From an uncultured delta proteobacterium (lineage in GTDB: Bacteria; Desulfobacterota; Syntrophorhabdia; Syntrophorhabdales; WCHB1-27), in NCBI GenBank assembly GCA_963810935.1, contig CAWEPK010000008.1, positions 192,001 through 256,000 on the forward strand: a stretch of DNA of 64,000 nucleotides, given 5' to 3'. The notes under the pieces were generated by a model. The model saw only the letters and a list, made by a program, of their open reading frames with translations. It had not been told where the DNA came from and made no database searches. Of this stretch, positions 37,698 to 64,000 are shown piece after piece. Both the position numbers and the translations under genes were made by a program. How positions within the stretch are numbered: position 1 is the stretch's first letter; every line of letters starts with the position of its first letter.

Positions 37698-37776
37698 GTT
37701 ACTTTAACGATGTGCCACAGTTAATTGTATTTGTTAGTCTTTAGACAGGTCGATCTATAGCGGCAAGTATGGCGAT

Positions 37777-37867: not shown

Positions 37868-37890
37868 GCGCCAGACGCCGCCACACCCAC

Positions 37891-42523: not shown

Positions 42524-42526
42524 GGC

Positions 42527-47217: not shown

Positions 47218-48438
47218 CTATTTCTTCCGGTCTTTGAGTACCTCTTCGCAGCTCGACATGTAATCCTTTGCGGGGATCACCTGGTTTTCGGCCGAGATGA
47301 GGAAATCGGGGTACTTGGGATCTTTCTTGGTAACGCCCCAGTACATAGGCAGCTCAAGCTGGTGGTCGCAGGCCCGCATCGTCAGGGGACCGACCGGGCT
47401 GTCGACCGTCATACCTTCGAGAGCCTTGACAAACCGCTCCGTGTCCACTTTTCCCGCCTTCTTGAACCCCTCCGCTATGAACTCCGCAGTCATGTATCCG
47501 TAAAGCGCGCCGATGCGCGGATACCTGCTGTAAGCCTTCTGGAAGTCTGAAGCGAAGGCCCTGTTGGCAGGCGTATCCGGGTAATAAAAAAGGTAGTTCG
47601 ACGTGCCGAAGGCGCCTTCGGGTGCATTCGGCCCCTGCGCCATGAGCGTGGAGTGCTCGTTGGCCGTATGCTGGTAGAAAGGCACCTTCTGGCTCAAGCC
47701 CGTTGCCTTGGCCGCCTTCTGGAAGTTCACCATGCCCGACCCGCCCGTCGCGACAATGAGGAAATCGGGTTTTGCGGCCATGATCTGCGTGATGTAAGGA
47801 GTAAAATCGGCCTCGCCGACCTTCCACCAGGACTGGCCCACGAGCTGTACGTTGGGCTTTAGCTTCTTCAGGTGGTTCCACACGCCGTCAGCGATAGCGT
47901 GGCCGTATTCATAGTCATCGCCCGCTATCCAGTACTTCACATACGGCTTCTTGGCAAGCATGAGGGCGGCGGCCTTCCCCGCCATCAGTGTGTTTTCGTT
48001 CATGTTGAAGACGTACCGGTGTCCCTTCTCGCCGATGATCTTATCGCTTTTCGCGAACGTAACGAAGAAGGGTACCTTCTCCTTCTTGGCGAAATCGGAG
48101 ACGGCAAGCGCCGTACCGCTGTTGATAGTGCCCATCAGTATGTCAACTTTCTCCTTCATCACGAGATCTTTCGCCATTGCGAGTCCGATGTCGGGCTTGA
48201 ATTTCTCATCGCGCGTCATGTACTCGATCTTCCTGCCCAACACCCCGCCTTTGGCGTTGATCTTTTCTACGGCCAGCTTGAAGCCGTCGAGGACATCCTG
48301 CGTGAAGCTCGTGGCCGGCCCGGAATACGTATCGACGATCCCGACCTTGATCGGCCCGGCCGCAAAGCAAAACGAAGCGGCAGAAAGAAGCCCGACCGAT
48401 AATCCAAGAACCAGTCCAACAACCATACTTTTTCGCAT
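47218..48438 (-). CDS. ABC transporter substrate-binding protein (Leu/Ile/Val/aromatic-binding family)
   Basis: Signal peptide; IKVGIV..SGP, INAKGGVLGRKI, DYEYGH, MRACDHQ. Confidence 0.88.
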   Translation of the reverse strand: MRKSMVVGLVLGLSVGLLSAASFCFAAGPIKVGIVDTYSGPATSFTQDVLDGFKLAVEKINAKGGVLGRKIEYMTRDEKFKPDIGLAMAKDLVMKEKVDILMGTINSGTALAVSDFAKKEKVPFFVTFAKSDKIIGEKGHRYVFNMNENTLMAGKAAALMLAKKPYVKYWIAGDDYEYGHAIADGVWNHLKKLKPNVQLVGQSWWKVGEADFTPYITQIMAAKPDFLIVATGGSGMVNFQKAAKATGLSQKVPFYQHTANEHSTLMAQGPNAPEGAFGTSNYLFYYPDTPANRAFASDFQKAYSRYPRIGALYGYMTAEFIAEGFKKAGKVDTERFVKALEGMTVDSPVGPLTMRACDHQLELPMYWGVTKKDPKYPDFLISAENQVIPAKDYMSSCEEVLKDRKK

Positions 48439-48482
48439 GATTTGCCCCTCTTCACTACGAATTCAGTTGCACCCCCGGCAAC

Positions 48483-48530
48483 TGTCTGTTATGTTTCGGA
48501 CATTCTATCGGATATATCTTTGCATGTCCA
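48483..48530 (-). promoter_or_regulatory. Putative sigma70 promoter with an inverted-repeat operator over the start site
   Basis: Minus-strand TGGACA-17 nt-TAGAAT (48530..48502) followed by TGTCCG-N8-CAGACA (48502..48483). Confidence 0.45.
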
Positions 48531-48683
48531 GAAAAGCCGGCTGCGTACCGCCATACCCATACTCCCAGAGGCCAACAGGTCCAAAGGCCGGAGCGATTTC
48601 ATAGGTCGAAAATCGCCCCGGCCCCATATAAGCCGGAAAAACGTCTTTGCCCAAAGCGGCGGGTATATGAACCCGCCGATCGC

Positions 48684-49907
48684 TTACTTGCCGGCGCGCT
48701 GCTTCATAATCTCATCACAGCCAGGCAAATAATCCTTGCCTGCCACTGTGAGAAAGTCCGACCCTATGAGGAACGGATAGGATTTCGTCTTCTTCGTCAC
48801 CCCGTAATACATCGGGAGGATCAACTGGTGGTCGCAGGCCCGCATCTGGATGTTCCCTATAGGGCTGTCAACGGTCAAACCTTCCATGGCGTCGATGAAC
48901 TTCTCGGTATCGACCTTGCCTGCCTTCTGGTACGCCTTTGCCATCAACTGGACGGCCACATAGCCGTAAAACGCCGTGGACCCGGGCTGTCTCTTGTAAA
49001 CCCTCATGAACTCATCGACGAAGGCCTTGTTGTCCGGGATATTCGGATAGTAGAAGTGATAGCTCGAGCTGCCCATCACGCCCTCGGGCGCATCCATGCC
49101 GAGCGGCCGCAGGGCAAGCAGGTCGGTAGCGTAGTGCTGGTATATGGGTATCTTCTTCTCCAGTCCCATGGCCTTGACGGCCTTCAGGAAGTTGACGATC
49201 CCCCCGCCGCCCGCCGCGCTGATGATACAGTCCGGCTTCGACTGCAAAGCGAGCGTCATGTAAGGGGCCAGGTCGGTCTCGCCGACCTTCCTCCAGGATT
49301 GTCCGAGGAGCTGCACTTGCGGCTTGAGCGTCTTGAGGTGGCTCCACAGGGCCTCTGCGCACGCATGGCCGAACTCGTAGTCCTCACCCATGATCCAGAA
49401 CTTCGTGTAGGGCTTCTTGGAGAGGGCGAGCGCCGCGGCCCTGCCGATCATGGCCGTGTTCTCGTTAGTGTTGAAGACGTAGCGGTTGCCTCTCTCGCCC
49501 GTGATCTTGTCGCTCTTCGCATCGGTTACGATGAAGGCTATCTTTTCCTTCTTCGCAAACTCGGACATGGCCAGGGCGCCGCCGGAGTTCGTCGATCCCA
49601 TGATGATATCGACCTTCTCCCGCATCACGAGGTCCTTGGTCATCTCGAGGGCGATATCAGGTTTGAACTTGTCGTCCCGCCTTATGATCTCGACCTTCCT
49701 GCCTAGTATCCCGCCCTTCGCGTTCACATGGGCGGCACCCAGCTTAATGCCGTCGAGCACGTCTTCCGTGTAGGTCGTCGCCGGCCCGGTGTACGTGTCC
49801 ACAACACCGACCTTGAACACGGCCTGCGCATGGACGGCCCCGGCACCCGTCAGAAAACAGGCAAAAACGAAGCATAAAGCCGCAATCAATGACATCACAG
49901 TTTTCAT
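48684..49907 (-). CDS. ABC transporter substrate-binding protein, paralog of the adjacent gene
   Basis: Shares DKFKPDI.L.M.KDLVM.EKVDI, KSDKI.GE, MRACDHQL with 47218..48438; GAGGAGG RBS. Confidence 0.88.
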   Translation of the reverse strand: MKTVMSLIAALCFVFACFLTGAGAVHAQAVFKVGVVDTYTGPATTYTEDVLDGIKLGAAHVNAKGGILGRKVEIIRRDDKFKPDIALEMTKDLVMREKVDIIMGSTNSGGALAMSEFAKKEKIAFIVTDAKSDKITGERGNRYVFNTNENTAMIGRAAALALSKKPYTKFWIMGEDYEFGHACAEALWSHLKTLKPQVQLLGQSWRKVGETDLAPYMTLALQSKPDCIISAAGGGGIVNFLKAVKAMGLEKKIPIYQHYATDLLALRPLGMDAPEGVMGSSSYHFYYPNIPDNKAFVDEFMRVYKRQPGSTAFYGYVAVQLMAKAYQKAGKVDTEKFIDAMEGLTVDSPIGNIQMRACDHQLILPMYYGVTKKTKSYPFLIGSDFLTVAGKDYLPGCDEIMKQRAGK

Positions 49908-49952
49908 ACAGCCTCCTCTTTCATTACCCCTTTTCAATACAAAAACATCACG

Positions 49953-51716
49953 CTACTTTGCGCCCGCCTGCCTTTTGACCGGGCGCCCGCCATCCTTCTT
50001 CTTCTGCGGGCAGACGAAAAGGCACATCCCGCAGTTGACGCAAAGCCCCTCGTCCCGTTTGACCTTCTTTGCTTCCTCGTCGAAGATGAGGCCGGGACAA
50101 TCGAACAGCTTTACGCATATTTTGCAACCGTTGCACGTTGCGCTCAGGTCGAGGTCGTCGTAGTAGGCAGCTTTGCCCGCCTTCGAAAACAGCAGGCACG
50201 GGTGGCGCGCGATGACGGCGGCCGGCCCCCTGCCCTTCGATCGCATATAGTCCTGCGCCTCTTTGAGGGTTTTTATCATGAGAGGCGTATCGTACGGGTC
50301 GATTGTCCGGATGAACTCGACGCCCAGTCCCCGCACCGTTTCTTCGATTGAAACGCGATACTCGCTCTTGCCGTCGGCCCGCATTCCGCTCCCCGGCGTC
50401 GGTTGCATCCCGGTCATCGCCGTCGTGCCGTTATCCAGGATAACTGCGATGAACCGCTTGCCCGTATGCGCCGCGCCGTAGATCAGTGGAAGCGCAGCGT
50501 GGAAGAATGTGGAATCGCCGATAGTGGCAAGGATCGGCATCTCCTCGCCGTCCTGGTCGTAGGTTTCGAAGAATCCTGAGGCAAGGCTTATGCTGCCGCC
50601 CATGTCGACGCACGTATCGACTGCCCCCTGCGATGTTCCAAGGGTATAGCAGCCGATGTCTCCCGGAAATATGGCCTTGGGGAACGCCCGCCGCATTGCG
50701 TAAAAGGAGGACCTGTGGGGACAGCCCGCACAGAGCTTGGGAGGACGGGGCGGGAACGGCACGCTGCTCACAGCAGTTTCTATCGAGTCGTCGGCGGAGA
50801 ACCCGCGCGCCTTCAAGCCCGTCTCCCGCGCAACGTCCTGCACTATGGCACGCACTACGTCGTAGGTAAGCTCGCCCTGGCTGGGAACATGGCCCGTAGA
50901 CCTGCCCAAGACCTTCGTGCGGCCCGCTACGAGCGCCTCCAGCACCTCGTCCGTCTCCTCAAGGATGAGGATGCTGTCCACCGACTCCGCGAAACGGAGC
51001 AGGCCGGGTTGGCAAGGATATATCTGCGCCGCCTTGTAAAGCGAAACGCTTTTTTCGAGCCCGAGCTCCTGAAGCACGTCCATCGCGACGTTATATCCCA
51101 TGCCCGAAGAAATGACGCCCAGCTTTTTACCGCCGGACATCTTCACGCCCTCGTCGATAGCGCCTCCGGCAACGGGGGCGTCGAGGCTGATTGCCTCCCT
51201 CGCGTGGCTGACCCGGTGGGTAGACCTGAGCACGACGGGCCTGTGCGTCCGGACTGAATAGTCCAGCGCATAGGCTGCCAGCAGGCGCGCGTCTTCGGGA
51301 GAGGAGACGTCGAATACGGGAAAGCCGAACAGCATGGCGATAAGCCGGGAATCCTGCTCGGTCTGGGACGACTGCGGTCCCGGGTCGTCGCAGGAGATGA
51401 CGACCAACCCACCTTTGATCTTTACGTCCCTGCCCTTTATAAACGGGGTAAAGGCCACATTCAGCCCAACCTGTTTCATCATGCAGGCAACCTTCTTGCC
51501 GGCCATCGCGGCCCCGTAGGCAACCTCCATGGCAACCCGCTCGTTGACGGACCACTCTGTGTGAATCTCCCTGTTGAAGCGTTTCTTGAAATCGACCACG
51601 GCCGGCAGTATCTCCGAGCTGGGTGTGCCCGGATAAGCCGACGCGACCTCCAGCCCGGCCTCTACGAGACCGAGGGCTATCGCCTGGTTTCCGATCATAA
51701 CTTCTGTCTTGCTCAT
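49953..51716 (-). CDS. iorA: Indolepyruvate:ferredoxin oxidoreductase alpha subunit
   Basis: GNQAIALG, YPGTPSSEI, WSVNE, MKQVGLNVA, RPPKLCAGCPHR, GDIGCY, IGDSTFFH, DNGTTAMTG, two C-terminal 4Fe-4S motifs. Confidence 0.88.
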   Translation of the reverse strand: MSKTEVMIGNQAIALGLVEAGLEVASAYPGTPSSEILPAVVDFKKRFNREIHTEWSVNERVAMEVAYGAAMAGKKVACMMKQVGLNVAFTPFIKGRDVKIKGGLVVISCDDPGPQSSQTEQDSRLIAMLFGFPVFDVSSPEDARLLAAYALDYSVRTHRPVVLRSTHRVSHAREAISLDAPVAGGAIDEGVKMSGGKKLGVISSGMGYNVAMDVLQELGLEKSVSLYKAAQIYPCQPGLLRFAESVDSILILEETDEVLEALVAGRTKVLGRSTGHVPSQGELTYDVVRAIVQDVARETGLKARGFSADDSIETAVSSVPFPPRPPKLCAGCPHRSSFYAMRRAFPKAIFPGDIGCYTLGTSQGAVDTCVDMGGSISLASGFFETYDQDGEEMPILATIGDSTFFHAALPLIYGAAHTGKRFIAVILDNGTTAMTGMQPTPGSGMRADGKSEYRVSIEETVRGLGVEFIRTIDPYDTPLMIKTLKEAQDYMRSKGRGPAAVIARHPCLLFSKAGKAAYYDDLDLSATCNGCKICVKLFDCPGLIFDEEAKKVKRDEGLCVNCGMCLFVCPQKKKDGGRPVKRQAGAK

Positions 51717-52303
51717 ACCCTCACCCCACGCCGCGCTGCCGCGCGCCCGGCCTCGCTCCTTCCTTCCTCACATACCGCCCGGTTCATCTCGAAGAGCCTG
51801 GCCGGGACTTTGCGCCCGATTGCGCCGAGGATATTCTCGAAGACATACGGGCCGAAGGCGAAGTGCGAGAAGAAGCCGAGCATCGCCATGTTGGAGGCCT
51901 GTATAGCGCCGTGGCGGTTCGCGATGGCGTCCGCGTCGACGAAGTGCCACTCTATATCTCTTGACTCAAGCAGGGCGCGGACCGTTGGAGGCATCTCACG
52001 CCCCGCGGAGTTGATAATCGCAAGGCCGCCTCTCCTCAGGAAAGTCAGGTTGCGGTAAAATTCACTCTCTTCGAAGGAAAGGAGGGCGTCCGCGTTTTCC
52101 CTGCCCACGAAGGGGCTGCGGAAAGTGCCGATCTTCAACATCGAGACGACCGAGCCGCCCCTCTGGCTCATGCCCAGCTCATCGGAAGCCATCGCGTGGT
52201 ATCCCGCGGCGGTAGCTGTCTCTATAAGGACCGCCGACGCGAGGAGCACGCCCCTTCCGCCTACGCCCGAGCAGACAATCTCCCACTTTGACGGCCGTTT
52301 CAT
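51713..52303 (-). CDS. iorB: Indolepyruvate:ferredoxin oxidoreductase beta subunit
   Basis: SGVGGRGVLLA, GMSQRGGSV, NMAMLG. Confidence 0.88.
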   Translation of the reverse strand: MKRPSKWEIVCSGVGGRGVLLASAVLIETATAAGYHAMASDELGMSQRGGSVVSMLKIGTFRSPFVGRENADALLSFEESEFYRNLTFLRRGGLAIINSAGREMPPTVRALLESRDIEWHFVDADAIANRHGAIQASNMAMLGFFSHFAFGPYVFENILGAIGRKVPARLFEMNRAVCEEGRSEAGRAAARRGVRV

Positions 52304-53514
52304 AAATCACCTTCGTGCAGAAGCACGGTAAGGCGTGCCTCGCGCTTGTATTTCCCGATGTCGCCGGACGACGCCAGCCGCACGATATGCTCGAAGCCGA
52401 AGCCCCGGAGCGCATCCGAGACCGTCTTTTCCATACCGTTCGTCTTTATTGCGAGCAGGTAGTCCGATCCGTTATAGATCGTGTTGACGAACGCGGCCAG
52501 GCCCGAATGGAGGAAGGAGCCCGCGTCGGTAACTGCAAGGATATTCCTGGCCCCCGCTTTTGCCATGCCATGGGCGATGTTTATCGACGATGCCGGACCG
52601 AGACGGTCCCTGATGACGGTAAGGCCCGAAAGCTTCCCGCCTGATGCCGGCCTCTCGCCTTTTTCGGCACGCGCCGGTGTGCCTTTGCAGAGCCGCCCAT
52701 CAATTCCGCCCATGCGCAATTGCACCTCAATGCCCGGATAAGCCCCTTCGATGACCTGCACTCGTTTCATGTCAGCAGCAAATTGCGACACAAGGCGGAC
52801 GGGCAGCGGGAAGACCGACCCAAGGGAAAGGACGCTCGCGTTTTGTGACATCTCTTCAGTGCAGGCCCGGTGTGTCAGCACGCCTTGCGTCCCTCTGACG
52901 TTCATCACGTTCCCGGCGTACGTCTCGAACTCGTCGCGAATGCGCTCTATCTTTGCATTCAACGCCTTATGGAGCTGGTACCTGAATTTCGGTATTGCGG
53001 CCCACCGCCCCGTGTCTTTCACGAAAGCGGAAGCCCCGTCAGCCGCCGCCGCCTTCCGCCGCGTGATGCCTTCAGGCGGGAGTGTCTCGACAATGCAGGG
53101 CATCTCGTATCTCGCCGACAGGTCGAACGCAAACGACAGGGCGGACGACAGGTCGCGGGCCGTCCCGTCCGACACCAGGATGGGGAGCTTCGAGAACGGT
53201 CCGAGGGGCGTCGCATCCAGGGGCCCCTCCTTGACGCAGACCACGACGAAGGCGCCCTTCACGCCCGTATAAGCAGAGCTCATAAGCGGGTCGAGCGCAT
53301 CGTAAAGGCCTTCGACGGAGAAGAGGCAGGCGGTCTTTTTCGCGGCATACGACCCGGCAAGGGCCATCTCGTATGCCGCCTGCTCGTTGACGCACGATTC
53401 AAAATGCACGCCCGGCGGCGCCTTGCCGGCTAAATCCGGCATGCCCGCAGTATAGACGAGCCTGGGTCCGAACGAAAGTATCAGATTGAAAAGGTTGGGG
53501 TACATGGATGTCAT
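52300..53514 (-). CDS. Degenerate IorA-like protein lacking catalytic and Fe-S motifs
   Basis: NEQAAYEMALAGS, DPLMSSAYTGVKG, RYEMP, SFLHSGL.AFVNTIYN align with IorA; no YPGTP, CxGCPH, GDIGC or ferredoxin motifs. Confidence 0.7.
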   Translation of the reverse strand: MTSMYPNLFNLILSFGPRLVYTAGMPDLAGKAPPGVHFESCVNEQAAYEMALAGSYAAKKTACLFSVEGLYDALDPLMSSAYTGVKGAFVVVCVKEGPLDATPLGPFSKLPILVSDGTARDLSSALSFAFDLSARYEMPCIVETLPPEGITRRKAAAADGASAFVKDTGRWAAIPKFRYQLHKALNAKIERIRDEFETYAGNVMNVRGTQGVLTHRACTEEMSQNASVLSLGSVFPLPVRLVSQFAADMKRVQVIEGAYPGIEVQLRMGGIDGRLCKGTPARAEKGERPASGGKLSGLTVIRDRLGPASSINIAHGMAKAGARNILAVTDAGSFLHSGLAAFVNTIYNGSDYLLAIKTNGMEKTVSDALRGFGFEHIVRLASSGDIGKYKREARLTVLLHEGDL

Positions 53515-53548
53515 TCGCTCACTATATATACCATATTATTTTGGATTT

Positions 53549-55273
53549 TCACTTGCGCGGCCTTTTCCGGCCGCGCAGCGCTCTGGTGGCCTTGACGTCT
53601 GCTTTCATCGAGACAGGGTCGATTACCACCCCGTACTCGCTCTTTGCTGCTTCGACGGAGACATAACCTTCCGCTACGTCGCTCTCCACCATCTCCGGGT
53701 CTCTCTCGAACGGCTCCCCGTAACCGCCGCCGCCGGGCGCGTCTATCGTTACAACGTCGCCGGGGACAAGCTGCGTGAGGCCGTAAGGGTTGCCGGGGGT
53801 GGTATTCACCAGAAACCGCGCGCGCGCTCCGGGACGCCCTCCGAAAAGGCCCTCCGGCGGATAGACGTACCGCCCCGACTGCATCCCGAGGTTCACGGGA
53901 GGCACGGGCGCGTAGGCATCGTTGGGGACTTTGAAGACGATCCTCTTGCCAAGACCGCCCTTCATCCTTCCCGGCCCTGCGGAGTCGGATAGAAGCTCCC
54001 TTCTCTCGACGATCAGGGGCGTATCGCTCTCGAAAATCTCCACCGGGGTGCCCGCGCCGTTCGCCGGGAATATGTACACGTAATTGCCGTCGTTCGAGCT
54101 GCCGGCGCCCATGCCGCCGCCCCTTATGACTACCGAGTGCCACGGCCTGCCGTTGTTCCTCTTTCCGTAGAAGACGTTCATTACCGCAGGAGTGCCTCCG
54201 CTCGCCGCTATCACCTTGGACGGCATGGCGGAGGACAATGCCCTGTAAATGATCTCCGTGAGGAAGTGGCCTATCACGAGCCGGGCTGCGACCGCCGCAG
54301 GGAAGCGGCAATTGACGACGCTCCCTTCCGGCGCCGTAAGGTGGAGAGGCTTCGCGCACCCGTCGTTATTCGGGATGTCGGGACCGAACATGCTCTTCAT
54401 CGCCATAAAGACATACGCATAGGTAAAGTTGAACACTACGTTGCCGCCCCAGTTGACCTGCGGCGAGGAGCCGGAGAGGTCAACGCTGATGTCGCTCCCC
54501 TTCACCCTTACTGCGGCTTTTATGACGACGTCGCCGCTGCCTTTCGTCTGCTCCACGATGCCTTCAGCCCGGTAGAGCCCGTCCGGGACTTTGGCGATCT
54601 CTTCCCGCATGCTCTTTTCCGTTCGGCCGATGATCTCGTCCGCAAGGTCGTCCAGGTCGGACAGGTGGTTCTCCCTGAGCATCCGGCCTACTTTGTCGGC
54701 GCACACGTGGTTGGCCGCAATCTGCGACCGTATGTCGCCTATCACTTCATCGGGGGTCCGGACGTTCCACCGGATCATTTCCATCACCGACTCGTTAAGG
54801 ACGCCGCCGTCATACAGCTTTACGAGAGGGATGAAAAGGCCCTCTTCGAAAACGTCGTGGTTGTCCGACGAGACGCGGCCGCCGATATCGGAATGATGGA
54901 AAACGCACGCGGTAAAGGCGACGACCTTGTGCTCGTAGAATATCGGACTCATGACGCAGACGTCGTTCAGGTGGCCCGCAAGCGCCCACGGGTCGTTCGT
55001 TATGAAAACGTCGCCCGGCTTATACTCGCTGACCGGCGTGCGCATCACCAGGTTCTTGATCCCCAGCGCCATCGCGCCCGACTGGCCCGGCGTCGCAAAG
55101 CTCCCCTGCGCAAGCTCGCGCCCTTTGCGGTCGGTGAACATGCAAGTGTAATCGTGCGCGTCGCGCAGCAGGCTCGAAAAAGCCGTGCGGGCGACCGTGC
55201 CGTCCGCTTCATCCACTATCGATATCAGCCTTCGCCAGAGTATTTCCAGCGTAATCGGATCGAAAGACGCCAT
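53549..55273 (-). CDS. Hydantoinase B / oxoprolinase family subunit
   Basis: DPITLEILW, TAFSSLLRDAHD, NDPW..GHLND, HHSDIGG, PGGGGYG; ATG 55273. Confidence 0.9.
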   Translation of the reverse strand: MASFDPITLEILWRRLISIVDEADGTVARTAFSSLLRDAHDYTCMFTDRKGRELAQGSFATPGQSGAMALGIKNLVMRTPVSEYKPGDVFITNDPWALAGHLNDVCVMSPIFYEHKVVAFTACVFHHSDIGGRVSSDNHDVFEEGLFIPLVKLYDGGVLNESVMEMIRWNVRTPDEVIGDIRSQIAANHVCADKVGRMLRENHLSDLDDLADEIIGRTEKSMREEIAKVPDGLYRAEGIVEQTKGSGDVVIKAAVRVKGSDISVDLSGSSPQVNWGGNVVFNFTYAYVFMAMKSMFGPDIPNNDGCAKPLHLTAPEGSVVNCRFPAAVAARLVIGHFLTEIIYRALSSAMPSKVIAASGGTPAVMNVFYGKRNNGRPWHSVVIRGGGMGAGSSNDGNYVYIFPANGAGTPVEIFESDTPLIVERRELLSDSAGPGRMKGGLGKRIVFKVPNDAYAPVPPVNLGMQSGRYVYPPEGLFGGRPGARARFLVNTTPGNPYGLTQLVPGDVVTIDAPGGGGYGEPFERDPEMVESDVAEGYVSVEAAKSEYGVVIDPVSMKADVKATRALRGRKRPRK

Positions 55274-55274
55274 T

Positions 55275-57377: not shown

Positions 57378-59683
57378 GCCGCTCCCCCTTCCTTTTCTTT
57401 TGCCTTAAGCGCAGCGAGCACTTTTTCCGGGGTTATGGGCAGGTCCCTTATCCTCACGCCTATCGCGTCGTACACGGCGTTCGCGATTGCCGGCGCAGTC
57501 GGCACCAGGCCCGGCTCGCCTATACCTTTCGCCCCGAACGGACCATCCTTCTCGTCCGTCTCGACTATGACCGCCTGCATGGGCGGTATGTCCCTCGCCG
57601 TAAGGATCTTGTAATCCAGGTAATTCGGGTTCATCAGCCTGCCGTCTTTGTAGACCATCTTCTCCGAAAGGGCGTAGCCGAGGCCCATAGCGCCGCCTCC
57701 CGATATCTGCCCTTCGAGGAGCATCGGGTTGAGGGCCTTGCCGACGTCGTGGGCTGCCACGTAATTGATGACCTTGACCCTGCCCGTCTCCTTGTCGACC
57801 TCGACCTCGACGCCGTGCGCGCCATAGGCGTAGGTGACGGAGAGGTTCCCTTTAAGCTCCCGGTCGAGGCACTCGTTCGGCGGGTCGTAAAAATATTCCG
57901 CCATGAGCATCTTGCCGCCCGACATGTAGTGCGCGTTCCGCAGGATTTTGGCTAGGGAGATGTTCTTTTCTTTATTGTGTCTCGCGTAAATGAGGCCGGG
58001 CGCCAGCTCCAGCCCCGACGGGTCTTCGTTCAACGCCTCGGCGGCCGCTTCAAGGATCTGCTGCTTGATCTTCATAGCCGCGCCCAGCGCCGAGTTGCCG
58101 CCGACGAACGTGGTACGGCTCGCATGGACGCCCACGTCCCATGGGCAAACGTCCGTATCATTGTTGATCACGTTCACGTCGTCCGTCGAGATGCCGAGCA
58201 CCTCCGCGACGATCTGGGCGATGATCGTGTCCGACCCCTGGCCTATGTCCGACGAGCCGGTGAAGACGTCCACCTTGCAGTAGTCGTCCATCTTGATGAT
58301 CGTGCCGCACCCGTCTGACTTGTAGACCCTCGCTCCCCCGCCGACGTGGATGAGGGTGGCCATGCCGAAACCTCTTCCTTCCTTGGCCTTGCGCTTCCCG
58401 CTCCAGCCCAGCCTGCTTTTGACCTCCGACATGCATTCCTTCATGCCGCAGGTGGTGATCTTCAGCTTCTGGGGCGTAAACTCTCCGGGCTCGTTCGCGT
58501 TCTTCAGCCTGAAATCGTAAGGTTCAATCCCCGCCTTCTCCGCAAGCTCTTCGAGGGAAGACTCGATGGCGAACGTTGCCTGGGGGTTGCCGTAACCTCT
58601 CATGGCCTGGCTATACGTATTGTTCGTATAAACACACTTGGCGATATATTTGATGTTCGGCACTTTATATAGCGAGGAGATGGGCATCATCATGACCGAC
58701 GGCGTCGTCGCCCCCCATGACGTATAGGCCCCGTTGTCGAGGATCATCTCCATGTCCCTGAAGAGTAGCTTTCCTTCTTTGGTGCAACCTTGCGAGATGC
58801 GGGTGATCGTGGGCTGCCTGGGCGACGTAGCCAGGAACTCCTCTTCCCGCGTGAAGACGATCTTAACCGGCCGCCTGGCAGCCATGGCCAGTAGTATCGC
58901 GATATATTCATAAGCGTAGGTGTCCAGCTTGCTCCCGAAACCACCTCCTATGGTGGTCTGGATGACCCTGACCCGCTTGCCTTTCAGGCCGAAGACGCCG
59001 AGCGCCTCCATGAAATCCTTCTGCGCCAGGGATGGTATCTGCGTGTTGCTGTACATCGTAAGGTTCTTAGTAGAGTCGAACTGGGCGATGCACCCGCTGG
59101 TGCCCATGCAGCAGTGGGTAACCCATTGCGTGCTGTACGAGCCTTCCACTATGAAGGCCGCCTCTTTCTTCGCCGCCTCAACGTCGCCGGAAACCAGCCG
59201 CCAGGGCAGGTTGAGGATATTGGTGGGCTTCTTCTCTTTGCCGCCCAGGTGGTCTTCGTGTATCAGGGGCGCGCCTTCTTTCATCGCCTCAAGAGGGTCG
59301 AAGACGGCAGGCAGCTCCTCGTACTCGACCTCGATCAGGTCGAGGGCGTCTTCGGCAATCTCCGGGTCCGTCGCGGCGACCGCGGCAATCTCATCCCTCA
59401 GAGAACAGACCTTGTCCTTCTTGAGCGGCGGGTTGTCCTTATAGACGCCCATCTTGAAAGGCGGGACCGAGGCGCCCGTGATGACCGCTTTCACGCCCGG
59501 AAGATTCTCCGCCCGGGAAGTATCTATGCGTTTTATACGCGCGTGGGGATAACGACTGTATAATATCTTTCCGTAGAGCATTCCGGGCAGTGCCAGGTCC
59601 TGGATGTAGGAGGCCTCACCCGTCACTTTGGCCGGCGCGTCCTTCTTGGATATCCTTTTTCCTACGGCAGTCAGCTCCATCAT
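57374..59683 (-). CDS. Xanthine dehydrogenase family molybdopterin-binding subunit
   Basis: KVTGEA.Y, GGGFGSK, AMRGYGNPQ, ASRTT, GPFGAKGIGEP, LPITPEKV. Confidence 0.92.
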   Translation of the reverse strand: MMELTAVGKRISKKDAPAKVTGEASYIQDLALPGMLYGKILYSRYPHARIKRIDTSRAENLPGVKAVITGASVPPFKMGVYKDNPPLKKDKVCSLRDEIAAVAATDPEIAEDALDLIEVEYEELPAVFDPLEAMKEGAPLIHEDHLGGKEKKPTNILNLPWRLVSGDVEAAKKEAAFIVEGSYSTQWVTHCCMGTSGCIAQFDSTKNLTMYSNTQIPSLAQKDFMEALGVFGLKGKRVRVIQTTIGGGFGSKLDTYAYEYIAILLAMAARRPVKIVFTREEEFLATSPRQPTITRISQGCTKEGKLLFRDMEMILDNGAYTSWGATTPSVMMMPISSLYKVPNIKYIAKCVYTNNTYSQAMRGYGNPQATFAIESSLEELAEKAGIEPYDFRLKNANEPGEFTPQKLKITTCGMKECMSEVKSRLGWSGKRKAKEGRGFGMATLIHVGGGARVYKSDGCGTIIKMDDYCKVDVFTGSSDIGQGSDTIIAQIVAEVLGISTDDVNVINNDTDVCPWDVGVHASRTTFVGGNSALGAAMKIKQQILEAAAEALNEDPSGLELAPGLIYARHNKEKNISLAKILRNAHYMSGGKMLMAEYFYDPPNECLDRELKGNLSVTYAYGAHGVEVEVDKETGRVKVINYVAAHDVGKALNPMLLEGQISGGGAMGLGYALSEKMVYKDGRLMNPNYLDYKILTARDIPPMQAVIVETDEKDGPFGAKGIGEPGLVPTAPAIANAVYDAIGVRIRDLPITPEKVLAALKAKEKEGGAA

Positions 59684-60147
59684 CCACCTCCCACGGCGGA
59701 CTTAATGGCCTCAATAATTTGAACGTACCCCGTACATCTGCACAGATTGCCTTCTATGCCCTCCTTGATCTCATCATCGGTAGGCCGGACATTCTCATCC
59801 AGCAAGGCATAAGCAGACATGATCATCCCTGGCGAGCAGAAGCCGCACTGAACGGCCCCGTGCTCGATGAAGGCTACCTGGAGCGGATGGAGGCTGCCGT
59901 CTTTCGCCGTCAGGCCCTCGATGGTCTTCACGCTGCACCCTCCCGCCTCTATCGCGGGGAAAAGGCAGGAATTGACCGCTTTCCCATCGACGATCACCGT
60001 ACAGGCCCCGCATTCACCATGGCCGCACCCTTCCTTCGTCCCTTTAAGACCCATAACCTCCCGCAATAGATAGAGGAGGGTCCAGTGGGGTTCCACCTCC
60101 GTCCCGACGGTCTCGCCGTTCAGAACAAATGAAATTTCTTTCTTCAT
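59680..60147 (-). CDS. Xanthine dehydrogenase family (2Fe-2S) subunit
   Basis: GCGHGECGACTV, QCGFCSPG, GNLCRCTGY. Confidence 0.95.
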   Translation of the reverse strand: MKKEISFVLNGETVGTEVEPHWTLLYLLREVMGLKGTKEGCGHGECGACTVIVDGKAVNSCLFPAIEAGGCSVKTIEGLTAKDGSLHPLQVAFIEHGAVQCGFCSPGMIMSAYALLDENVRPTDDEIKEGIEGNLCRCTGYVQIIEAIKSAVGGG

Positions 60148-60157
60148 CCTTTCACCC

Positions 60158-61120
60158 TTACCAGAGCCTGTCAGGATAAACCATCTCGTCCGGCCGCAAG
60201 ACCCGGTCGAGGGACTTCATGATCGCTCTCCGCACTAGGACTTCCACCAGTTCCCTGCGATACCACGCGTCTCCCCGTACGTCGTCTATCGGCGACGATT
60301 CGGATGCCGCGACCTGCGCCGCGGCGGCAACGGCCTCGTCGGAGAGAACGCGGCCCTTGAGCATATCTTCAGCTTTTCTCGCCCTCAGAGGACGGGGCGC
60401 AACTGCGGCCATTGCTATGCGTATGTCCTTGCAGCGCACCTCCTCGTCACCGAAATGGGAGAGTATCTCGGAGGCAGGCGCCATGCTGCATAGCATGTCC
60501 TTGCAGCGAACGTCCGTCCTGTCCAGGGTGAGCCGCACGGCGACGGCTGCGATGGGCAGGTCCACGGCGTTTCTCCTCGCCTGCCTTATATACGCCGACC
60601 CTGTATAGTCGTCTGTCTCCGGCACACGCAGCTCTTTAAGGATCTCGCCCCTCTTCAGCACTGTCATGCCCGGTCCCAGGAAAAAATCATCGAGGCTTAC
60701 GCGCCGCTCGCCTTCGGGTCCCACTATGACCCCTTCCGCGTCCAACACGAGAAGCGGGCAGGCAGTGTCGGCCGAAGGCGCGGCATTGCAGATATTGCCT
60801 CCGATGGTAGCCACGTTCCTTATCTGCGTCGACCCTACGTTGCACACAGCGTCGTGGAGGGCCGAGAGGCGCTTCTGAGCGTGCTCGTTCTTTTGGATCT
60901 CCCTGTGAGTCACGCAGGCGCCGATGGAAAGCCCGTTCAGCACGGACAACTCCTTTATGCTCCTGAGCGACGTCAGCGCCTTCACGGAAAGTCTCTTCTG
61001 CCTGAGGAGCACCATCACGTCAGTGCCGCCCGCTATGTATGCAGCGTCGCCGCTGAATCGCCCCATTAGATCGAGCGCCTCCGAAATGGAAGCGGGTTTA
61101 AAATACTCGAACCGAAGCAT
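60158..61120 (-). CDS. Xanthine dehydrogenase family FAD-binding subunit
   Basis: IAGGTD, QIRNVATIGGNICNAAPSAD, PIDDVRG..WYR. Confidence 0.92.
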   Translation of the reverse strand: MLRFEYFKPASISEALDLMGRFSGDAAYIAGGTDVMVLLRQKRLSVKALTSLRSIKELSVLNGLSIGACVTHREIQKNEHAQKRLSALHDAVCNVGSTQIRNVATIGGNICNAAPSADTACPLLVLDAEGVIVGPEGERRVSLDDFFLGPGMTVLKRGEILKELRVPETDDYTGSAYIRQARRNAVDLPIAAVAVRLTLDRTDVRCKDMLCSMAPASEILSHFGDEEVRCKDIRIAMAAVAPRPLRARKAEDMLKGRVLSDEAVAAAAQVAASESSPIDDVRGDAWYRRELVEVLVRRAIMKSLDRVLRPDEMVYPDRLW

Positions 61121-61183
61121 GTTAGTCCCCTCTCCTTCCGTCCGGCCGGAACGGCAATTTGCCCAATATCGCCAGACCCCGGC

Positions 61184-62476
61184 CTAATCCTCTCTAGTGT
61201 CGAATACCCTCTTAGTCTTTCTTTCGGACCTCGGAAGCTCGCCGTAGCCGCAGATCTCGCACTCGCAGCTCACCATGATCTGCTTCTTGACCAGCGCCTC
61301 GACCGCTTTCTTGCATGCGGCGTCTCCGCCGGGAGAGGCGCCTTTTCCCCTCTCGACCTTGATGGTCATGTAATCCTTTCCGTCGCCGGCCCTCTTCAGG
61401 TGCACCTGAAATTCGCTGCCTATGCCGGGGATGCCCGAAAGCACGTGGTCGATCTGGCCGGGATAAACGTTGACGGCCCTTATGATGAACATATCGTCCG
61501 AGCGGCCCAGGAAGCGGTCGTGCCTCGGCAGGATCGAGCCGCAGGGACAGGTCCCCGGTATGGCCCTCGTCAGGTCCCTCGTCCTGTACCTGATCAGGGG
61601 CGCGGCCTCTTTCCGCAGGGTGGTGACGACGAGCTCGCCGATTTCGCCTTCCGGCACCGGCTCCAGTGTCTCAGGGTCGAGGAACTCCGCTATGTAGTAG
61701 TCGGCCCAGTAGTGAATGCCCGTGTGATGGACGCAATCGAGGCCCGTGCCCGGACCGTAAAGCTCGGTCATCCCTGGGATGTCGAATATATCCTGTACGC
61801 CGAGCATTTCCCTGATCTTCGCCCGCATTGAGTCGCTCGACCGCTCCGAGCCGAAAATGACTTTCTTGAGGTTGATCTTATCCTTGATGCCCCTCTTCTC
61901 GACCTCTTCCGCCATGAGCAGACCCATAGACGCGGTGCAGCAGAGCACGGTGGTCTTGAAATCGACGAGGAACTCGCATTGCAGGTCGATGTTCCCCGGT
62001 CCTATGGGTATCGCCATCGCTCCGAAGCGCTCGCACCCTGCCTGGAACCCGACCCCGGCCGTCCACACGCCGTAACCGACGGCGATCTGCACGCTGTCCG
62101 CCGCAGTCAGCCCGGCCATCTCATAGCAGCGCGCAAAAAAATTGGCCCAGTCATCGATGTCGCGCGCAGTATAGGCAAGCACCTTGCGCTTACCCGTAGT
62201 GCCCGAGGACGCGTGTATCCTGACAACGTCCTCCATCGGAACGGAAAGGAGCGGGAAAGGATACCCCGCCTTGAGGTCGTTGGCCGTAGTAAAAGGCAAG
62301 CGCTTCAAGTCGTCCAGCGTCTTGATCTGCTCCGGCCTGACACCGGCGTCCTCTAATTTTTTCCTGTAAAACGGAGACCCCTTAAATGCGTGCTGCACCG
62401 TCCACTTCAAGCCCTCAAGCTGAAAGGCGAGCAACTCCTTCTCGGTCTTCTGAACCGGCATGAATGTCTTTCCCAT
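61184..62476 (-). CDS. paaK: Phenylacetate-CoA ligase family (aryl-acetate CoA ligase)
   Basis: VRIHASSGTTGK, PLIRYRTRD, GRSDDMFIIRAVNVYP; ATG 62476 with GAGGGGAG RBS. Confidence 0.85.
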   Translation of the reverse strand: MGKTFMPVQKTEKELLAFQLEGLKWTVQHAFKGSPFYRKKLEDAGVRPEQIKTLDDLKRLPFTTANDLKAGYPFPLLSVPMEDVVRIHASSGTTGKRKVLAYTARDIDDWANFFARCYEMAGLTAADSVQIAVGYGVWTAGVGFQAGCERFGAMAIPIGPGNIDLQCEFLVDFKTTVLCCTASMGLLMAEEVEKRGIKDKINLKKVIFGSERSSDSMRAKIREMLGVQDIFDIPGMTELYGPGTGLDCVHHTGIHYWADYYIAEFLDPETLEPVPEGEIGELVVTTLRKEAAPLIRYRTRDLTRAIPGTCPCGSILPRHDRFLGRSDDMFIIRAVNVYPGQIDHVLSGIPGIGSEFQVHLKRAGDGKDYMTIKVERGKGASPGGDAACKKAVEALVKKQIMVSCECEICGYGELPRSERKTKRVFDTRED

Positions 62477-62516
62477 GATAACTCCCCTCCACGAGAAATT
62501 GACCGGACGGGTTTTT

Positions 62517-64000
62517 CTAAAACAGGCTCGGCTCGTCGAACTCGCCGAAAATGTTGCGAAAAACACCCGTCATTTCACCAACCGTTGCGTAGGCCTTGCA
62601 GCACTCCACGAGGAAAGGCATGACGTTCTTCCCTTCCTTTGTGGCCTTTTCCAGATCACCGAGCGTCTTCGCGACGTCCCGGCTGCTCCTGCCGCGCCTG
62701 ACCTCTTTCAGGTCCTCTATCTGCTTGTTCGCCGACTCCGTATTGTATTCATGCAGCTCAACGTCCTGTGATTCTCCTTCCGTGTGGATGTTGACTCCGA
62801 CCTTTAGAAGCTCTCCGGACTGGATGCCCTTCTCGAAGTCGTATGCCTGCGCAGCCACGAGCCTCTGGATGTAACCCGTTGCGACCGCCTGCACGATGCC
62901 CCCCACTTTCTCTATGCTGGCCATCTCTTCTTCGATCTTTTGCTCCATCTCTTTCGTCAGCGTCTCGATGAAGTAGCTGCCTGCGAGCGGGTCCACCGTA
63001 TCGCGCAGCCCTATCTCGTCCATCAGAAGCTGGAGCGTGCGCAGCGAGATGATGGCCGAATGGGGCGTGGGAATGGTGTAAGCCTCGTCATAGCTGCAAA
63101 GGGCGATAGTCTGTGCGCCCGACAGGGCCGCGGCCAGGGCGTAATAGGCGCCCCGCATGATGTTGTTCTCGGGCTGCGCCTTCGTGAGGCCGTAACCCCC
63201 GCCCCCGAAGAGGCCCCGGAGATACATGTTCGAATCTTTCTTTACGCCGTATTTCTCTTTCAGGTTCCTTGCCCACATTTTCCTCGCCGCCCTGAACTTC
63301 GCCACCTGCTCCCACAGGTTGCCGAAGACGTTCAGGTTGAAGGAGAAGCGGCCGACGAAATCGTCCGCCTCGTACCCCCTCGCCAGCACGTTATCAATGT
63401 AGGCGTTCGCGATCAGGACGGCGCACGCGATCTCCTGCGCGGGCGTAGCCCCGGATTCCCTGATATGGTATCCGCACACGCTCACCGGGTTAGTCCTGGG
63501 CAGGACGTTCATCGAGTACTCGATGGTGTCGCCGATCAGCTTGACTGCGGGCTCCACGGGGAAAATCCACGAGCCCCTGCCGATCATCTCCTTCAATATG
63601 TCGTTCTGCGGCGTGGCGGAGATAACGGCCGGGCTGTAACCGAACTTCTCGGCGACCGCCTGGTACATGGCAAGCATGATCGAGGCGACCGCATTTATCG
63701 TGAGGCCGGACCCGATGCGCGCAAGGTCGATCTGGTTGAAGGCTACCTCGAAGTCACGGAGCGAATCGACCGCCATGCCCACGCGGCCCACCTCGCCCTC
63801 GGACATAGGGTCGTCCGAGTCGTAGCCCATCTGCGTGGGGAGGTCGAAGGCCACGTTGAGCCCCGTCTGCCCGTGCGAGATCATCAGCTTGAACCGCTCG
63901 TTCGTCTCGGCTGGCGTGCCGAAACCCGTATACTGGCGCGTCGTCCAGGCCCTGCTCCTGAAGCCCTGCGGGTGGATGCCCCGCGTGAACGGATACCGGC
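62517..64000 (-). CDS. Coenzyme B12-dependent acyl-CoA mutase, large subunit (5' end outside window)
   Basis: YPFTRGI, RQYTGFG, AFDLPTQMGYDSD, QNDILKE, GYHIRESGAT, VDPLAGSY, AYATVGE. Confidence 0.92.
   Translation of the reverse strand, partial: RYPFTRGIHPQGFRSRAWTTRQYTGFGTPAETNERFKLMISHGQTGLNVAFDLPTQMGYDSDDPMSEGEVGRVGMAVDSLRDFEVAFNQIDLARIGSGLTINAVASIMLAMYQAVAEKFGYSPAVISATPQNDILKEMIGRGSWIFPVEPAVKLIGDTIEYSMNVLPRTNPVSVCGYHIRESGATPAQEIACAVLIANAYIDNVLARGYEADDFVGRFSFNLNVFGNLWEQVAKFRAARKMWARNLKEKYGVKKDSNMYLRGLFGGGGYGLTKAQPENNIMRGAYYALAAALSGAQTIALCSYDEAYTIPTPHSAIISLRTLQLLMDEIGLRDTVDPLAGSYFIETLTKEMEQKIEEEMASIEKVGGIVQAVATGYIQRLVAAQAYDFEKGIQSGELLKVGVNIHTEGESQDVELHEYNTESANKQIEDLKEVRRGRSSRDVAKTLGDLEKATKEGKNVMPFLVECCKAYATVGEMTGVFRNIFGEFDEPSLF

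Follow-up and report, generated by a model that had tools for sequence, protein, structure and literature searches.

A putative iaa-type operon from a Syntrophorhabdales bacterium with an attached three-gene indolepyruvate oxidoreductase module

A 64,000-nucleotide stretch of DNA from an uncultured delta proteobacterium of the order Syntrophorhabdales (GCA_963810935.1, contig CAWEPK010000008.1, positions 192,001 to 256,000; G000:C8:192001-256000 in our numbering, G000 being this genome) was analysed here and is referred to as the window in its full length. We propose, with moderate confidence, that positions 47218-64000 are the downstream part of an operon of about 25 kb of the iaa type, i.e. 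the type that serves anaerobic degradation of indole-3-acetate, and that three genes attached to it encode a ferredoxin-dependent indolepyruvate oxidoreductase (IOR), which would join the tryptophan pool to the pathway at the level of the CoA-ester. The iaa-type assignment is well supported as far as gene content, motifs and synteny can carry it. The iaa part is not new, since operons of this kind have previously been published for strict anaerobes. The attachment of the IOR is genuine in this genus and constitutes the capture of a three-gene module found throughout the order. This three-subunit enzyme, linked elsewhere in the order to a TrpB2-like gene and an aminotransferase, is an undescribed IOR variant.

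Twelve open reading frames (ORFs) were listed at 47218-64000, all on the minus strand. From Pfam and NCBIfam scans, in which the NCBIfam equivalog cut-offs were applied, a Pfam family could be assigned to 11 of the 12, while the Pfam scan returned no family for the 404-aa ORF at 52300-53514. Annotation of the next 36 kb (locus L001, where the window-equivalent position is the L001 position plus 62000) extended the run by about 8.4 kb past the window end to 21 co-oriented minus-strand genes over about 25 kb, so that the window holds the 3' two-thirds. Intergenic distances range from -4 to 88 nt except for four longer gaps of 245, 289, 165 and 112 nt, of which the 245-nt gap precedes the last binding protein gene and the 289-nt gap after the GntR gene holds a 92-aa FixX-like ORF. 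Each gene of the run is present as a single copy in the 4.06-Mb assembly (93.5% complete, 7% contamination). The first-pass annotation, made from the sequence alone, had described a tight, co-oriented run of these genes; all 12 ORFs were recovered on the minus strand, and both family scans agree with it. The gene order cannot be ascribed to chance, because many related loci show synteny of this gene set. From its first to its final gene, the run comprises:

L001:9182-10372, minus strand: family III CoA-transferase, first gene of the run (PF02515, 256 bits; no other equivalog reached)
L001:8218-9168, minus strand: MeaB (TIGR00750, 264 bits, above the cut-off of 240.75)
L001:6957-8111, minus strand: IaaF-like acyl-CoA dehydrogenase with the GGG motif (LLYGGGTHEI)
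L001:6009-6791, minus strand: EtfB
L001:5023-6000, minus strand: EtfA
L001:3725-5020, minus strand: FixC-like flavoprotein
L001:3450-3728, minus strand: FixX-like, ferredoxin-like ORF of 92 aa, about 1.5 kb past the window end, between the GntR and FixC-like genes
L001:2728-3435, minus strand: GntR/FCD regulator
L001:2234-2656, minus strand: small, B12-binding subunit of the mutase (PF02310; TIGR00640, 142 bits, above the cut-off of 57.45; DGHDRG)
62517..64000, minus strand: large subunit of the B12 acyl-CoA mutase (IaaG/H-like), truncated at the window end (PF01642; complete gene 572.7 bits)
61184..62479, minus strand: PaaK-type aryl-acetate CoA ligase (IaaB-like; AMP-binding, AMP-binding_C_2; SSGTTG motif)
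60158..61120, minus strand: molybdenum hydroxylase FAD subunit (FAD_binding_5, CO_deh_flav_C; XdhB 220.6 bits, cut-off 310)
59680..60147, minus strand: molybdenum hydroxylase 2x[2Fe-2S] subunit (Fer2_2, Fer2)
57374..59683, minus strand: molybdenum hydroxylase large subunit of the xanthine dehydrogenase (XDH) family (Ald_Xan_dh_C, MoCoBD_1, MoCoBD_2)
55275..57377, minus strand: hydantoinase/lactamase A subunit, ATP-binding, 700 aa (IaaC-like; Hydant_A_N, Hydantoinase_A, Hydant_A_C)
53549..55273, minus strand: hydantoinase/lactamase B subunit, 574 aa (IaaE-like; PF02538, 494.7 bits)
52300..53514, minus strand: IorA', a degenerate IorA paralog and third IOR subunit, 404 aa (IOR_alpha model positions 46-298)
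51713..52303, minus strand: IorB, IOR beta/gamma-type subunit (PF01558, 105 bits)
49953..51716, minus strand: IorA with PYR domain, thiamine diphosphate (TPP)-binding PP domain and C-terminal 2x[4Fe-4S] (POR_N, TPP_enzyme_C)
48684..49937, minus strand: substrate-binding protein 2 (PF13458, 250.8 bits)
47218..48438, minus strand: substrate-binding protein 1, Liv/Peripla_BP_6 type, final gene of the run (PF13458, 280.7 bits)

With the extension included, the cluster carries the whole iaa-type enzyme set that had been claimed for it in part, as judged by Pfam and NCBIfam families and by motifs. A two-subunit B12 mutase is accompanied by MeaB, the hydantoinase-like pair shows nearly the sizes, and the ATP motifs, of the iaa enzyme, and a family III CoA-transferase and a GGG-type dehydrogenase lie among iaa-type genes; beta-oxidation genes for a hydratase/dehydrogenase and a thiolase were not found in the cluster. 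Among the genes which the first-pass annotation had suggested to look for beyond position 64000, the mutase small subunit, the acyl-CoA dehydrogenase and the CoA-transferase are present, together with MeaB, electron transfer flavoprotein (ETF) and GntR genes, but no thiolase lies within about 20 kb. The gene of the mutase large subunit extends over L001:517-2145, reaching past the window to the extrapolated position 64145, and its product scores 417.7 bits against the methylmalonyl-CoA mutase (MCM) model NF006944 (cut-off 876). Its closest solved chain is 2-hydroxyisobutyryl-CoA mutase 4r3u (428 bits, versus 330 for human MCM). It retains an Arg aligned to the Arg of human MCM 'MVRN', where HcmA has Gln and which would bind the substrate carboxylate, and has a Phe aligned to the Tyr of human MCM 'TMY'. 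The DxHxxG motif of the small subunit reads DGHDRG. For the ligase, the ORF is open to 62566 with the most likely start, MGKTF, at 62479; it scores 405 bits against PaaK TIGR02155 (cut-off 646.3), and names given to its relatives in the protein atlas are of the 'phenylacetate-CoA ligase' type only. The large subunit of the molybdenum enzyme, with GIGEPG at residue 722, has no equivalog, since its best NCBIfam scores (626 for 4-hydroxybenzoyl-CoA reductase (4-HBCR) alpha, cut-off 994.55; 597 for XdhA, cut-off 780) fall below the cut-offs. The comparison with 4-HBCR gave 116.8 versus 404.55 for beta, in a partial alignment, and 165.4 versus 257.8 for gamma. In the hydantoinase-like pair, Met at 55273 is the most likely start of the B subunit instead of 55492, and the A subunit carries DIGGTFTD at residue 13 and DMGGT at residue 292. 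CapB and CapA, the caprolactamase subunits, are matched with 246.1 and 523.6 bits, respectively (cut-off 1000 each), and the Apc subunits far under 1250-1500. With all scores under the cut-offs, we rejected an identification of the molybdenum enzyme as 4-HBCR, of the mutase as MCM and of the hydantoinase pair as caprolactamase or oxoprolinase; 4-HBCR, 5-oxoprolinase and MCM had been raised beforehand as subfamilies that would speak against an iaa pathway. The only NCBIfam cut-off reached by the 12 window ORFs is that of a generic mutase N-terminal domain model.

The distribution of the dehydrogenase further illustrates that the cluster is widespread. A search of the 96 genomes of the order (numbered G0xx and divided into the family of G000 and families f2-f4) returned an IaaF-like match at E<=1e-110 in 79, and the cluster can therefore be considered a common, conserved trait of the order. 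The dehydrogenase alignment confirmed 441 relatives, from which the 80 best loci were retained, and related loci were mapped by tblastn with the 20 cluster proteins. Loci from Syntrophorhabdales, where the dehydrogenases are 84-98% identical, display the order CoA-transferase, (MeaB), (second acyl-CoA dehydrogenase), acyl-CoA dehydrogenase, EtfBA, (FixC), GntR and mutase, followed either by ligase, molybdenum enzyme and hydantoinase or by hydantoinase, ligase and molybdenum enzyme. A similar set in rearranged order was observed in metagenome-assembled genomes (MAGs) labelled Desulfobacteraceae, Desulfatiglandales, Syntrophobacteraceae, Bacteroidota and Solirubrobacterales (44-49% identity). 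No locus from Aromatoleum, Ferroglobus or Desulfatiglans anilini was found among the best 80 of the 441 relatives. In a quick, midpoint-rooted tree of 42 sequences, all unnamed or from MAGs, the ordinary acyl-CoA dehydrogenases form one clade (support 100) and the mutase-linked ones fall outside it in two groups. One group joins the dehydrogenase of G000 with sequences from Syntrophorhabdales, Desulfarculaceae and Syntrophaceae; the other contains Thermoplasmata, Bacteroidota, Desulfobacteraceae, Desulfatiglandales and Syntrophobacteraceae. In the homolog search with the dehydrogenase, MAGs of Syntrophorhabdales filled the results, and a lookup of six representatives gave MAG names only. The closest named homologs of the dehydrogenase and of IorA' are MAGs labelled Syntrophorhabdaceae, Syntrophorhabdales or Syntrophorhabdus, among them one 'hypothetical protein' of Syntrophorhabdus aromaticivorans. 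On plasmids, tblastn with the dehydrogenase detected generic dehydrogenases only (<=41% identity), and a homolog search with P0134 led to Desulfomonilaceae. Our search of the available literature, judged by titles and the openings of abstracts, found no paper linking Syntrophorhabdus with indoleacetate.

Two further observations concern these genes. A second dehydrogenase, 49-57% identical, is located directly upstream of the IaaF-like one in L006, L009, L010, L015, L022 and L023; the order-wide search gave 44 second dehydrogenase matches. G000 itself carries a single dehydrogenase gene of this type. Between families of the order, identities amount to 84-91% for the dehydrogenase, 82-90% for the mutase large subunit and 74-83% for the hydantoinases, versus 50-60% for IorA. 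This higher likeness of the iaa genes compared to the IOR trio may reflect their lateral spread in the order or an unusually strong constraint.

The attached trio begins 34 nt behind the hydantoinase B gene on the same strand, with overlaps of 4 nt between its own genes. IorA displays the hallmarks of a complete alpha subunit, with two CxxCxxCxxxCP-type motifs at its C-terminus and a GDS...DNG TPP motif; it scores 506 bits against the IOR_alpha model TIGR03336 (cut-off 650.9) and shares just 34% identity with both ordinary IorA copies in G000. The best NCBIfam families of IorB are all IOR beta, at no more than 119 bits (cut-offs 205-348). IorA' matches the N-terminal half of IOR_alpha with 128 bits (cut-off 650.9) and is remotely related to IorA, by a PYR domain 29% identical over 116 residues and a shortened PP domain. 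From 16 orthologs and from 20 database homologs, we observed that the GDS...NN positions of the TPP motif are not conserved in IorA' and that Glu49 in the PYR domain is invariant along with 58 to 75 other positions. The protein is annotated as 'hypothetical protein' by NCBI and as IOR alpha subunit by JGI. Among its 120 best database matches, the few organism labels are Syntrophorhabdales or Syntrophorhabdus, in addition to MAGs of Syntrophus sp., Proteobacteria and Pseudomonadota.

Complex prediction for IorA and IorA', performed with an own alignment for each chain and three controls, gave a score of 0.92 compared to 0.00 for the best control; of the solved complexes, 116 of 157 attain the mark applied, compared to 2 of 215 pairs that are mismatched. 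Contacts agreed by at least 89% between runs, with a partner pLDDT of at least 87. The PP domain of IorA (about residues 349-465) is predicted to contact the PYR domain of IorA' (35-107), and the PYR domain of IorA (52-130) the degenerate PP part of IorA' (304-373), which corresponds to a predicted head-to-tail arrangement as in TPP enzymes. This result may reflect likeness to solved dimers of TPP enzymes and 2-oxoacid oxidoreductases rather than a specific interaction, because related dimers have been solved. We read the enzyme as a probable heteromer in which one TPP site would be live and the other dead, with the PYR domain of IorA' serving the single TPP site of IorA.

Detection of IorA' in the order depends strongly on the threshold. 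At E<=1e-5, matches were obtained in 94 of the 96 genomes, a count we discarded, since it is inflated by weak matches to ordinary IorA genes of 600-650 aa. At E<=1e-40, IorA' is found in 81 of 96 genomes, distributed over the own family (11/22, G000 included), f2-f3 (5/5) and f4 (65/69). An IorB-type match follows the IorA'-type gene in all 18 fetched loci with an IorA'-type match, and an IorA-type match comes next in 17 of them; in L104, no IorA match passed the filter. The IorA sequences of the trios cluster in a single clade (support 98/98), remote from the two ordinary IorA copies in G000, with the copies of the own family grouping inside it (100/99), so that the trio can be treated as one orthologous family. 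We had considered an iaa-linked trio forming a separate paralog class from the TrpB2-linked one and abandoned it, as the tree shows one family following taxonomy. The trio abuts hydantoinase B in G000, G086 and G087, three of the four genomes of the genus, while the contigs of the remaining congener G085 are too short to tell. In the three genomes, its distance to the dehydrogenase is about 15.4 kb and its proteins are 74-93% identical. In G077 and G078 of the neighbouring genus g2, it resides on the strand of hydantoinase B, some 18 kb downstream of that gene. There it belongs to an operon of its own, in which genes for a binding protein, a pair of permeases, a pair of ATPases and an AMP-forming ligase of 540 aa are followed by the trio and binding protein 2. 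G049, G022, G057, G032 and G080 carry it 29-63 kb from the dehydrogenase on the same contig.

The binding protein genes show different affiliations. The two proteins are 57% identical. Orthologs of binding protein 2 (72-81% identical) stand immediately behind IorA in G087, in G077, in G078 and in G057, there at the second copy, so this gene travels with the IOR trio. Binding protein 1 has an ortholog at the same position in G087 (87% identical); a promoter-like site is located in the 245-nt gap upstream of it, though such sites are not above chance. The best solved-structure match of both proteins is 3i45, which carries no ligand information and thus allows no inference of a substrate.

Outside the own family, the flanks of the trio provide the best evidence available here on its substrate. 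In 8 of 10 trio loci from other families (L102, L103, L107, L108, L109, L110, L112 and L113), a TrpB-like pyridoxal phosphate (PLP) enzyme and a class I/II aminotransferase precede the trio. The PLP enzyme of about 450 aa is TrpB-like (TrpB2), with 737-749 bits against NF009057 (cut-off 366). The remaining two loci show ETF/FixC genes with binding protein 2 (L105) and an operon for a TRAP transporter (L106). Coordinates compared by hand placed TrpB2 within about 4 kb of IorA' in 54 of the 70 f2-f4 genomes with IorA' at E<=1e-40 and in 0 of 11 genomes of the own family. Since its neighbours are a TrpB2-like gene and an aminotransferase, the trio likely handles indolepyruvate or tryptophan, a role which these gene neighbourhoods support. 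In the available literature, our search found no paper containing both 'TrpB2' and 'indolepyruvate'. A seemingly independent second case of a trio next to an IaaF-like gene, L034, was dismissed, as it holds no trio; in this MAG, labelled Syntrophaceae, a fused IorA-IorB-type ORF of about 940 aa (L034:118-2925, plus strand), thus another form of IOR, is located upstream of genes for a CoA-transferase and for an IaaF-like dehydrogenase (59% identity), at a distance of about 6 kb.

From gene content, motifs, synteny, distribution and predicted pairing we infer, by analogy to Aromatoleum, substrates, an order of steps and possible directions of the IOR reaction as follows. The two periplasmic binding proteins would bind indoleacetate, which the PaaK-type ligase would convert to indoleacetyl-CoA. 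The three-subunit molybdenum enzyme would then hydroxylate C2, and the ATP-dependent, hydantoinase-like A/B enzyme would open the resulting lactam ring to a (2-aminophenyl)succinyl thioester, whose CoA group may be shifted by the family III CoA-transferase. Rearrangement by the B12 mutase, assisted by MeaB, would yield (2-aminobenzyl)malonyl-CoA, and oxidative decarboxylation by the GGG-type acyl-CoA dehydrogenase 2-aminocinnamoyl-CoA, with electrons presumably passing to EtfAB and the FixCX-like module encoded in the operon itself. Genes located elsewhere would have to provide the beta-oxidation to 2-aminobenzoyl-CoA. The IOR trio could interconvert indolepyruvate and indoleacetyl-CoA in a ferredoxin-dependent manner and thereby join the tryptophan pool to the pathway.

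A number of observations weigh against this proposal. No window enzyme reached an NCBIfam equivalog cut-off and no iaa-specific NCBIfam model was matched, so every assignment of a window enzyme stays at the family level. The likeness to the Aromatoleum Iaa proteins is judged at the level of gene content, motifs and published sizes. GGG[TS] occurs at the respective position in 29 of the 150 best acyl-CoA dehydrogenase representatives at 50% identity, and the motif is consequently necessary but not diagnostic. The dehydrogenase belongs to a different subgroup from the Thermoplasmata/Desulfatiglandales-type enzymes (44-49% identity). The annotated ORFs between window position 26695 and a point some 28 kb beyond the window end include no gene for a hydratase, a hydroxyacyl-CoA dehydrogenase or a thiolase, and the binding proteins have neither an ABC permease nor an ATPase beside them. 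A scan gave 3 promoter-like sites (5.6 expected) and 16 terminator-like sites (13.7 expected); as neither exceeds chance, these sites do not define transcription units. Direct adjacency of the trio is restricted to 3 of 96 genomes, all of one genus. An IorA'-type gene at E<=1e-40 occurs without an IaaF-like match at E<=1e-110 in G020, G039, G046, G047, G048, G050, G052, G053, G055 and G058, and an IaaF-like match without an IorA'-type gene in eight genomes (G089-G093, G043, G071 and G072). The operon layout in g2 is a better fit to uptake and reductive carboxylation than to tryptophan breakdown. The earlier description of the IOR as an extension of the pathway is therefore not supported in this form: the trio is an order-wide module, directly attached in this genus only and present without an IaaF-like gene in ten genomes.

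Three alternative explanations have to be weighed. The reaction could run in the anabolic direction, with the trio reductively carboxylating ligase-made indoleacetyl-CoA to indolepyruvate, from which an aminotransferase would form tryptophan, so that imported auxin would be shared between tryptophan supply and energy metabolism; we regard this as possible, though rather doubtful. Methanococcus maripaludis is reported to make aromatic amino acids from aryl acids by way of IOR, as cited in PMC4162585. The usual neighbours of the trio, TrpB2-like gene and aminotransferase, fit such a route, as does its position behind a complete ABC importer and an AMP-forming ligase in G077. TrpA (PF00290) was found in just 41 of the 96 genomes (28 of 68 of high quality) compared to 82 of 96 for TrpB2, in a survey which covered TrpA rather than the whole trp pathway; its scarcity could indicate widespread tryptophan auxotrophy or salvage from indole or indoleacetate. 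The genome search of G000 gave no match for TrpA, TrpB, IGPS, TrpD or TrpB2, while an ortholog of the aminotransferase of the TrpB2-trio module is kept (67% identical, C10:14313-15401). However, the missing trp genes may represent an assembly gap, given the completeness and contamination of G000 stated above and the presence of TrpB2 in all three congeners. The same neighbours are equally compatible with catabolism from indole and serine via tryptophan and indolepyruvate to indoleacetyl-CoA, and the sequence of a reversible ferredoxin enzyme carries no cue for direction. The operon context would accordingly fit the catabolic direction, from tryptophan via indolepyruvate and indoleacetyl-CoA to ring cleavage, equally well as the anabolic one. 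For the link to tryptophan proposed in the first-pass annotation, this means that an indolepyruvate/tryptophan role is backed by the TrpB2-like and aminotransferase neighbours, whereas its assignment to breakdown is not, since breakdown and synthesis fit alike.

The neighbourhood itself could also be a juxtaposition without functional meaning, in which trio and binding protein form a general arylpyruvate or 2-oxoacid module that a recent rearrangement in one genus has placed beside the iaa genes. We consider this unlikely, although it would agree with the direct adjacency being confined to G000, G086 and G087 and with trio and IaaF-like gene each being found without the other. In G077 and G078, the roughly 18 kb in between hold unrelated genes (pirin, alcohol dehydrogenase, Crp regulator, hypotheticals) in addition to the ABC-ligase operon of the trio, the intervening 45 kb in G057 consist of unrelated genes, and the trio tree follows families without an iaa-linked paralog class. 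Against it stand the 34-nt same-strand gap with 4-nt overlaps inside the trio, a layout kept in three genomes despite divergence of the trio to 74-93% identity, and trio and iaa genes lying 24-63 kb apart on one contig in seven more genomes; in addition, the product of an indolepyruvate oxidoreductase is precisely the first CoA ester of the pathway. Finally, the substrate may be a relative of indole-3-acetate, such as 2-oxindole-3-acetate, some other acetate with an aryl or heteroaryl group, or another N-heterocycle that forms a lactam, which appears distinctly improbable to us. All scores under equivalog cut-offs leave room for it, as do a dehydrogenase subgroup differing from the taxa named in the IaaF paper, the second dehydrogenase adjoining the first in many relatives, the conserved, divergently oriented second molybdenum enzyme of 4-HBCR-like type and binding proteins without a ligand clue. 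However, a hydantoinase-like A/B pair combined with an XDH-type hydroxylase, a B12 mutase, a family III CoA-transferase and a dehydrogenase of the decarboxylating type is not known from outside the iaa pathway, and the attached IOR points to an indolic substrate. In addition, all enzymes of the IaaF subclass are located in iaa-type clusters according to PMC8360864.

A more far-reaching model, which we put forward tentatively and rate as doubtful in its entirety, would combine several of these elements. The undescribed three-subunit IOR, with a dead alpha' in place of one alpha, would form together with the TrpB2-like enzyme and the aminotransferase a module for salvage or interconversion of tryptophan (indole or indoleacetate <-> tryptophan). 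Captured by the iaa operon in this genus, it would split the auxin pool at indoleacetyl-CoA between tryptophan synthesis and ring cleavage, and the divergent 4-HBCR-like molybdenum enzyme might remove the amino group of 2-aminobenzoyl-CoA. The latter enzyme neighbours the operon on the far side of the CoA-transferase gene:

L001:10742-14522, plus strand: 4-HBCR-like molybdenum enzyme, divergent from the CoA-transferase, about 8.7-12.5 kb past the window end

The G000 copy has a frameshift in the large subunit near L001:13704-13726, and an intact ORF of 715 aa is found in L003; the frameshifted gene is either a pseudogene or an assembly error. The same neighbour was observed in L003, L009, L022, L023 and L024, and its role on 2-aminobenzoyl-CoA is speculative. 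In the related locus L010, genes for a 3-hydroxyacyl-CoA dehydrogenase and a thiolase are located beside the cluster.

Two resistance-nodulation-division (RND) efflux systems lie just outside the cluster, at window positions 31687-46866. One lies on the plus strand, with an outer-membrane factor at 31687-33312 and an AcrB-type gene at 34542-37697. The other, directly downstream of the cluster on the minus strand, comprises an outer-membrane factor (37891-39387), two AcrB-type genes (39365-45664) and a membrane-fusion protein (45661-46866).

If the cluster functions as an iaa-type operon with an attached IOR, it bears on the fate of indoleacetate and tryptophan, both of which commonly arise in peat, sediments and digesters as proteins are fermented and plants decay. 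Organisms mineralising the indole ring under methanogenic conditions are poorly known, and the cluster with its relatives in 79 of 96 genomes points to Syntrophorhabdales as candidates. The ETF/FixCX genes of the operon constitute a natural candidate partner for IaaF, and the link between three-subunit IOR and TrpB2, in an order with many genomes that yielded no TrpA, provides a testable hypothesis of tryptophan salvage.

The best-described counterpart is the iaa cluster of Aromatoleum aromaticum EbN1 and A. (Azoarcus) evansii. In PMC8360864, the iaa pathway includes the binding protein IaaM, the ligase IaaB, the phenylsuccinyl-CoA transferase IaaL and the mutase IaaGH; IaaF is described as a benzylmalonyl-CoA dehydrogenase of the decarboxylating type, whose orthologues carry GGG in place of YEG and all occur within iaa-type clusters, and whose electron acceptor in Aromatoleum is given as unknown. 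PMC8453981 describes IaaC (707 aa) and IaaE (564 aa) as a hydantoinase-like hydrolase and names P1 and P2 phosphate/ATP motifs. Published accessions of the A. aromaticum proteins are CAI07262/WP_011236983 for IaaF, Q5P602 for IaaC and Q5P600 for IaaE, and R. palustris is a further source of published orthologues. Compared with these descriptions, the pair found here measures 700 and 574 aa with complete Pfam A and B domains, and its DIGGTFTD and DMGGT motifs correspond to the P1 and P2 phosphate sites. Both clusters share a binding protein, a ligase that is PaaK-type at the family level, a two-subunit B12 mutase, a family III CoA-transferase and a GGG acyl-CoA dehydrogenase. The Aromatoleum cluster reportedly also has a molybdenum enzyme, of the XDH family, and a GntR regulator (Ebenau-Jehle 2012), which would extend the likeness to these two genes. 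It is further said, in the same work, to contain hydratase/dehydrogenase and thiolase genes, which are found neither in nor near the cluster described here. Unlike the Aromatoleum cluster, the present one has its own EtfAB, FixC/FixX-like genes, MeaB and two binding proteins, carries a three-gene IOR at its 3' end and a divergent 4-HBCR-like molybdenum neighbour, and resides in a syntrophic strict anaerobe.

Closer parallels exist in strict anaerobes. PMC8360864 reports predicted iaa operons with their own ETF for Desulfatiglans anilini, other sulfate reducers and Ferroglobus and, citing Schuhle 2016, predicted operons also for strain NaphS2, Desulfocarbo indianensis, Ferroglobus placidus and Thermoplasmatales. 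The arrangement of an iaaF orthologue beside a dedicated ETF paralogue is common to those operons and the one described here. The MAG loci from Desulfatiglandales, Desulfobacteraceae, Desulfarculaceae and Thermoplasmata, found with the dehydrogenase as query, share mutase, CoA-transferase, ETF and ligase, with dehydrogenases which are 44-56% identical to that of G000 and belong to other subgroups. The row of EtfB, EtfA, FixC-like and FixX-like genes behind the IaaF-like dehydrogenase furthermore resembles FixABCX modules; here, however, scores stay under the equivalog cut-offs and the module follows an acyl-CoA dehydrogenase within a catabolic operon. The trio, finally, is best compared to the two-subunit IorAB enzymes (alpha2beta2; TIGR03336/TIGR03334), with which it shares an alpha subunit with TPP motif and two [4Fe-4S] clusters and a POR-gamma-type beta subunit, the IOR models being the best NCBIfam matches of its IorA and IorB, albeit with scores under the equivalog cut-offs. 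In contrast to the two-gene alpha2beta2 arrangement, a third alpha-like gene of about 405 aa is always part of the unit here, and its product IorA' would, according to the prediction, replace a second IorA as the partner of IorA.

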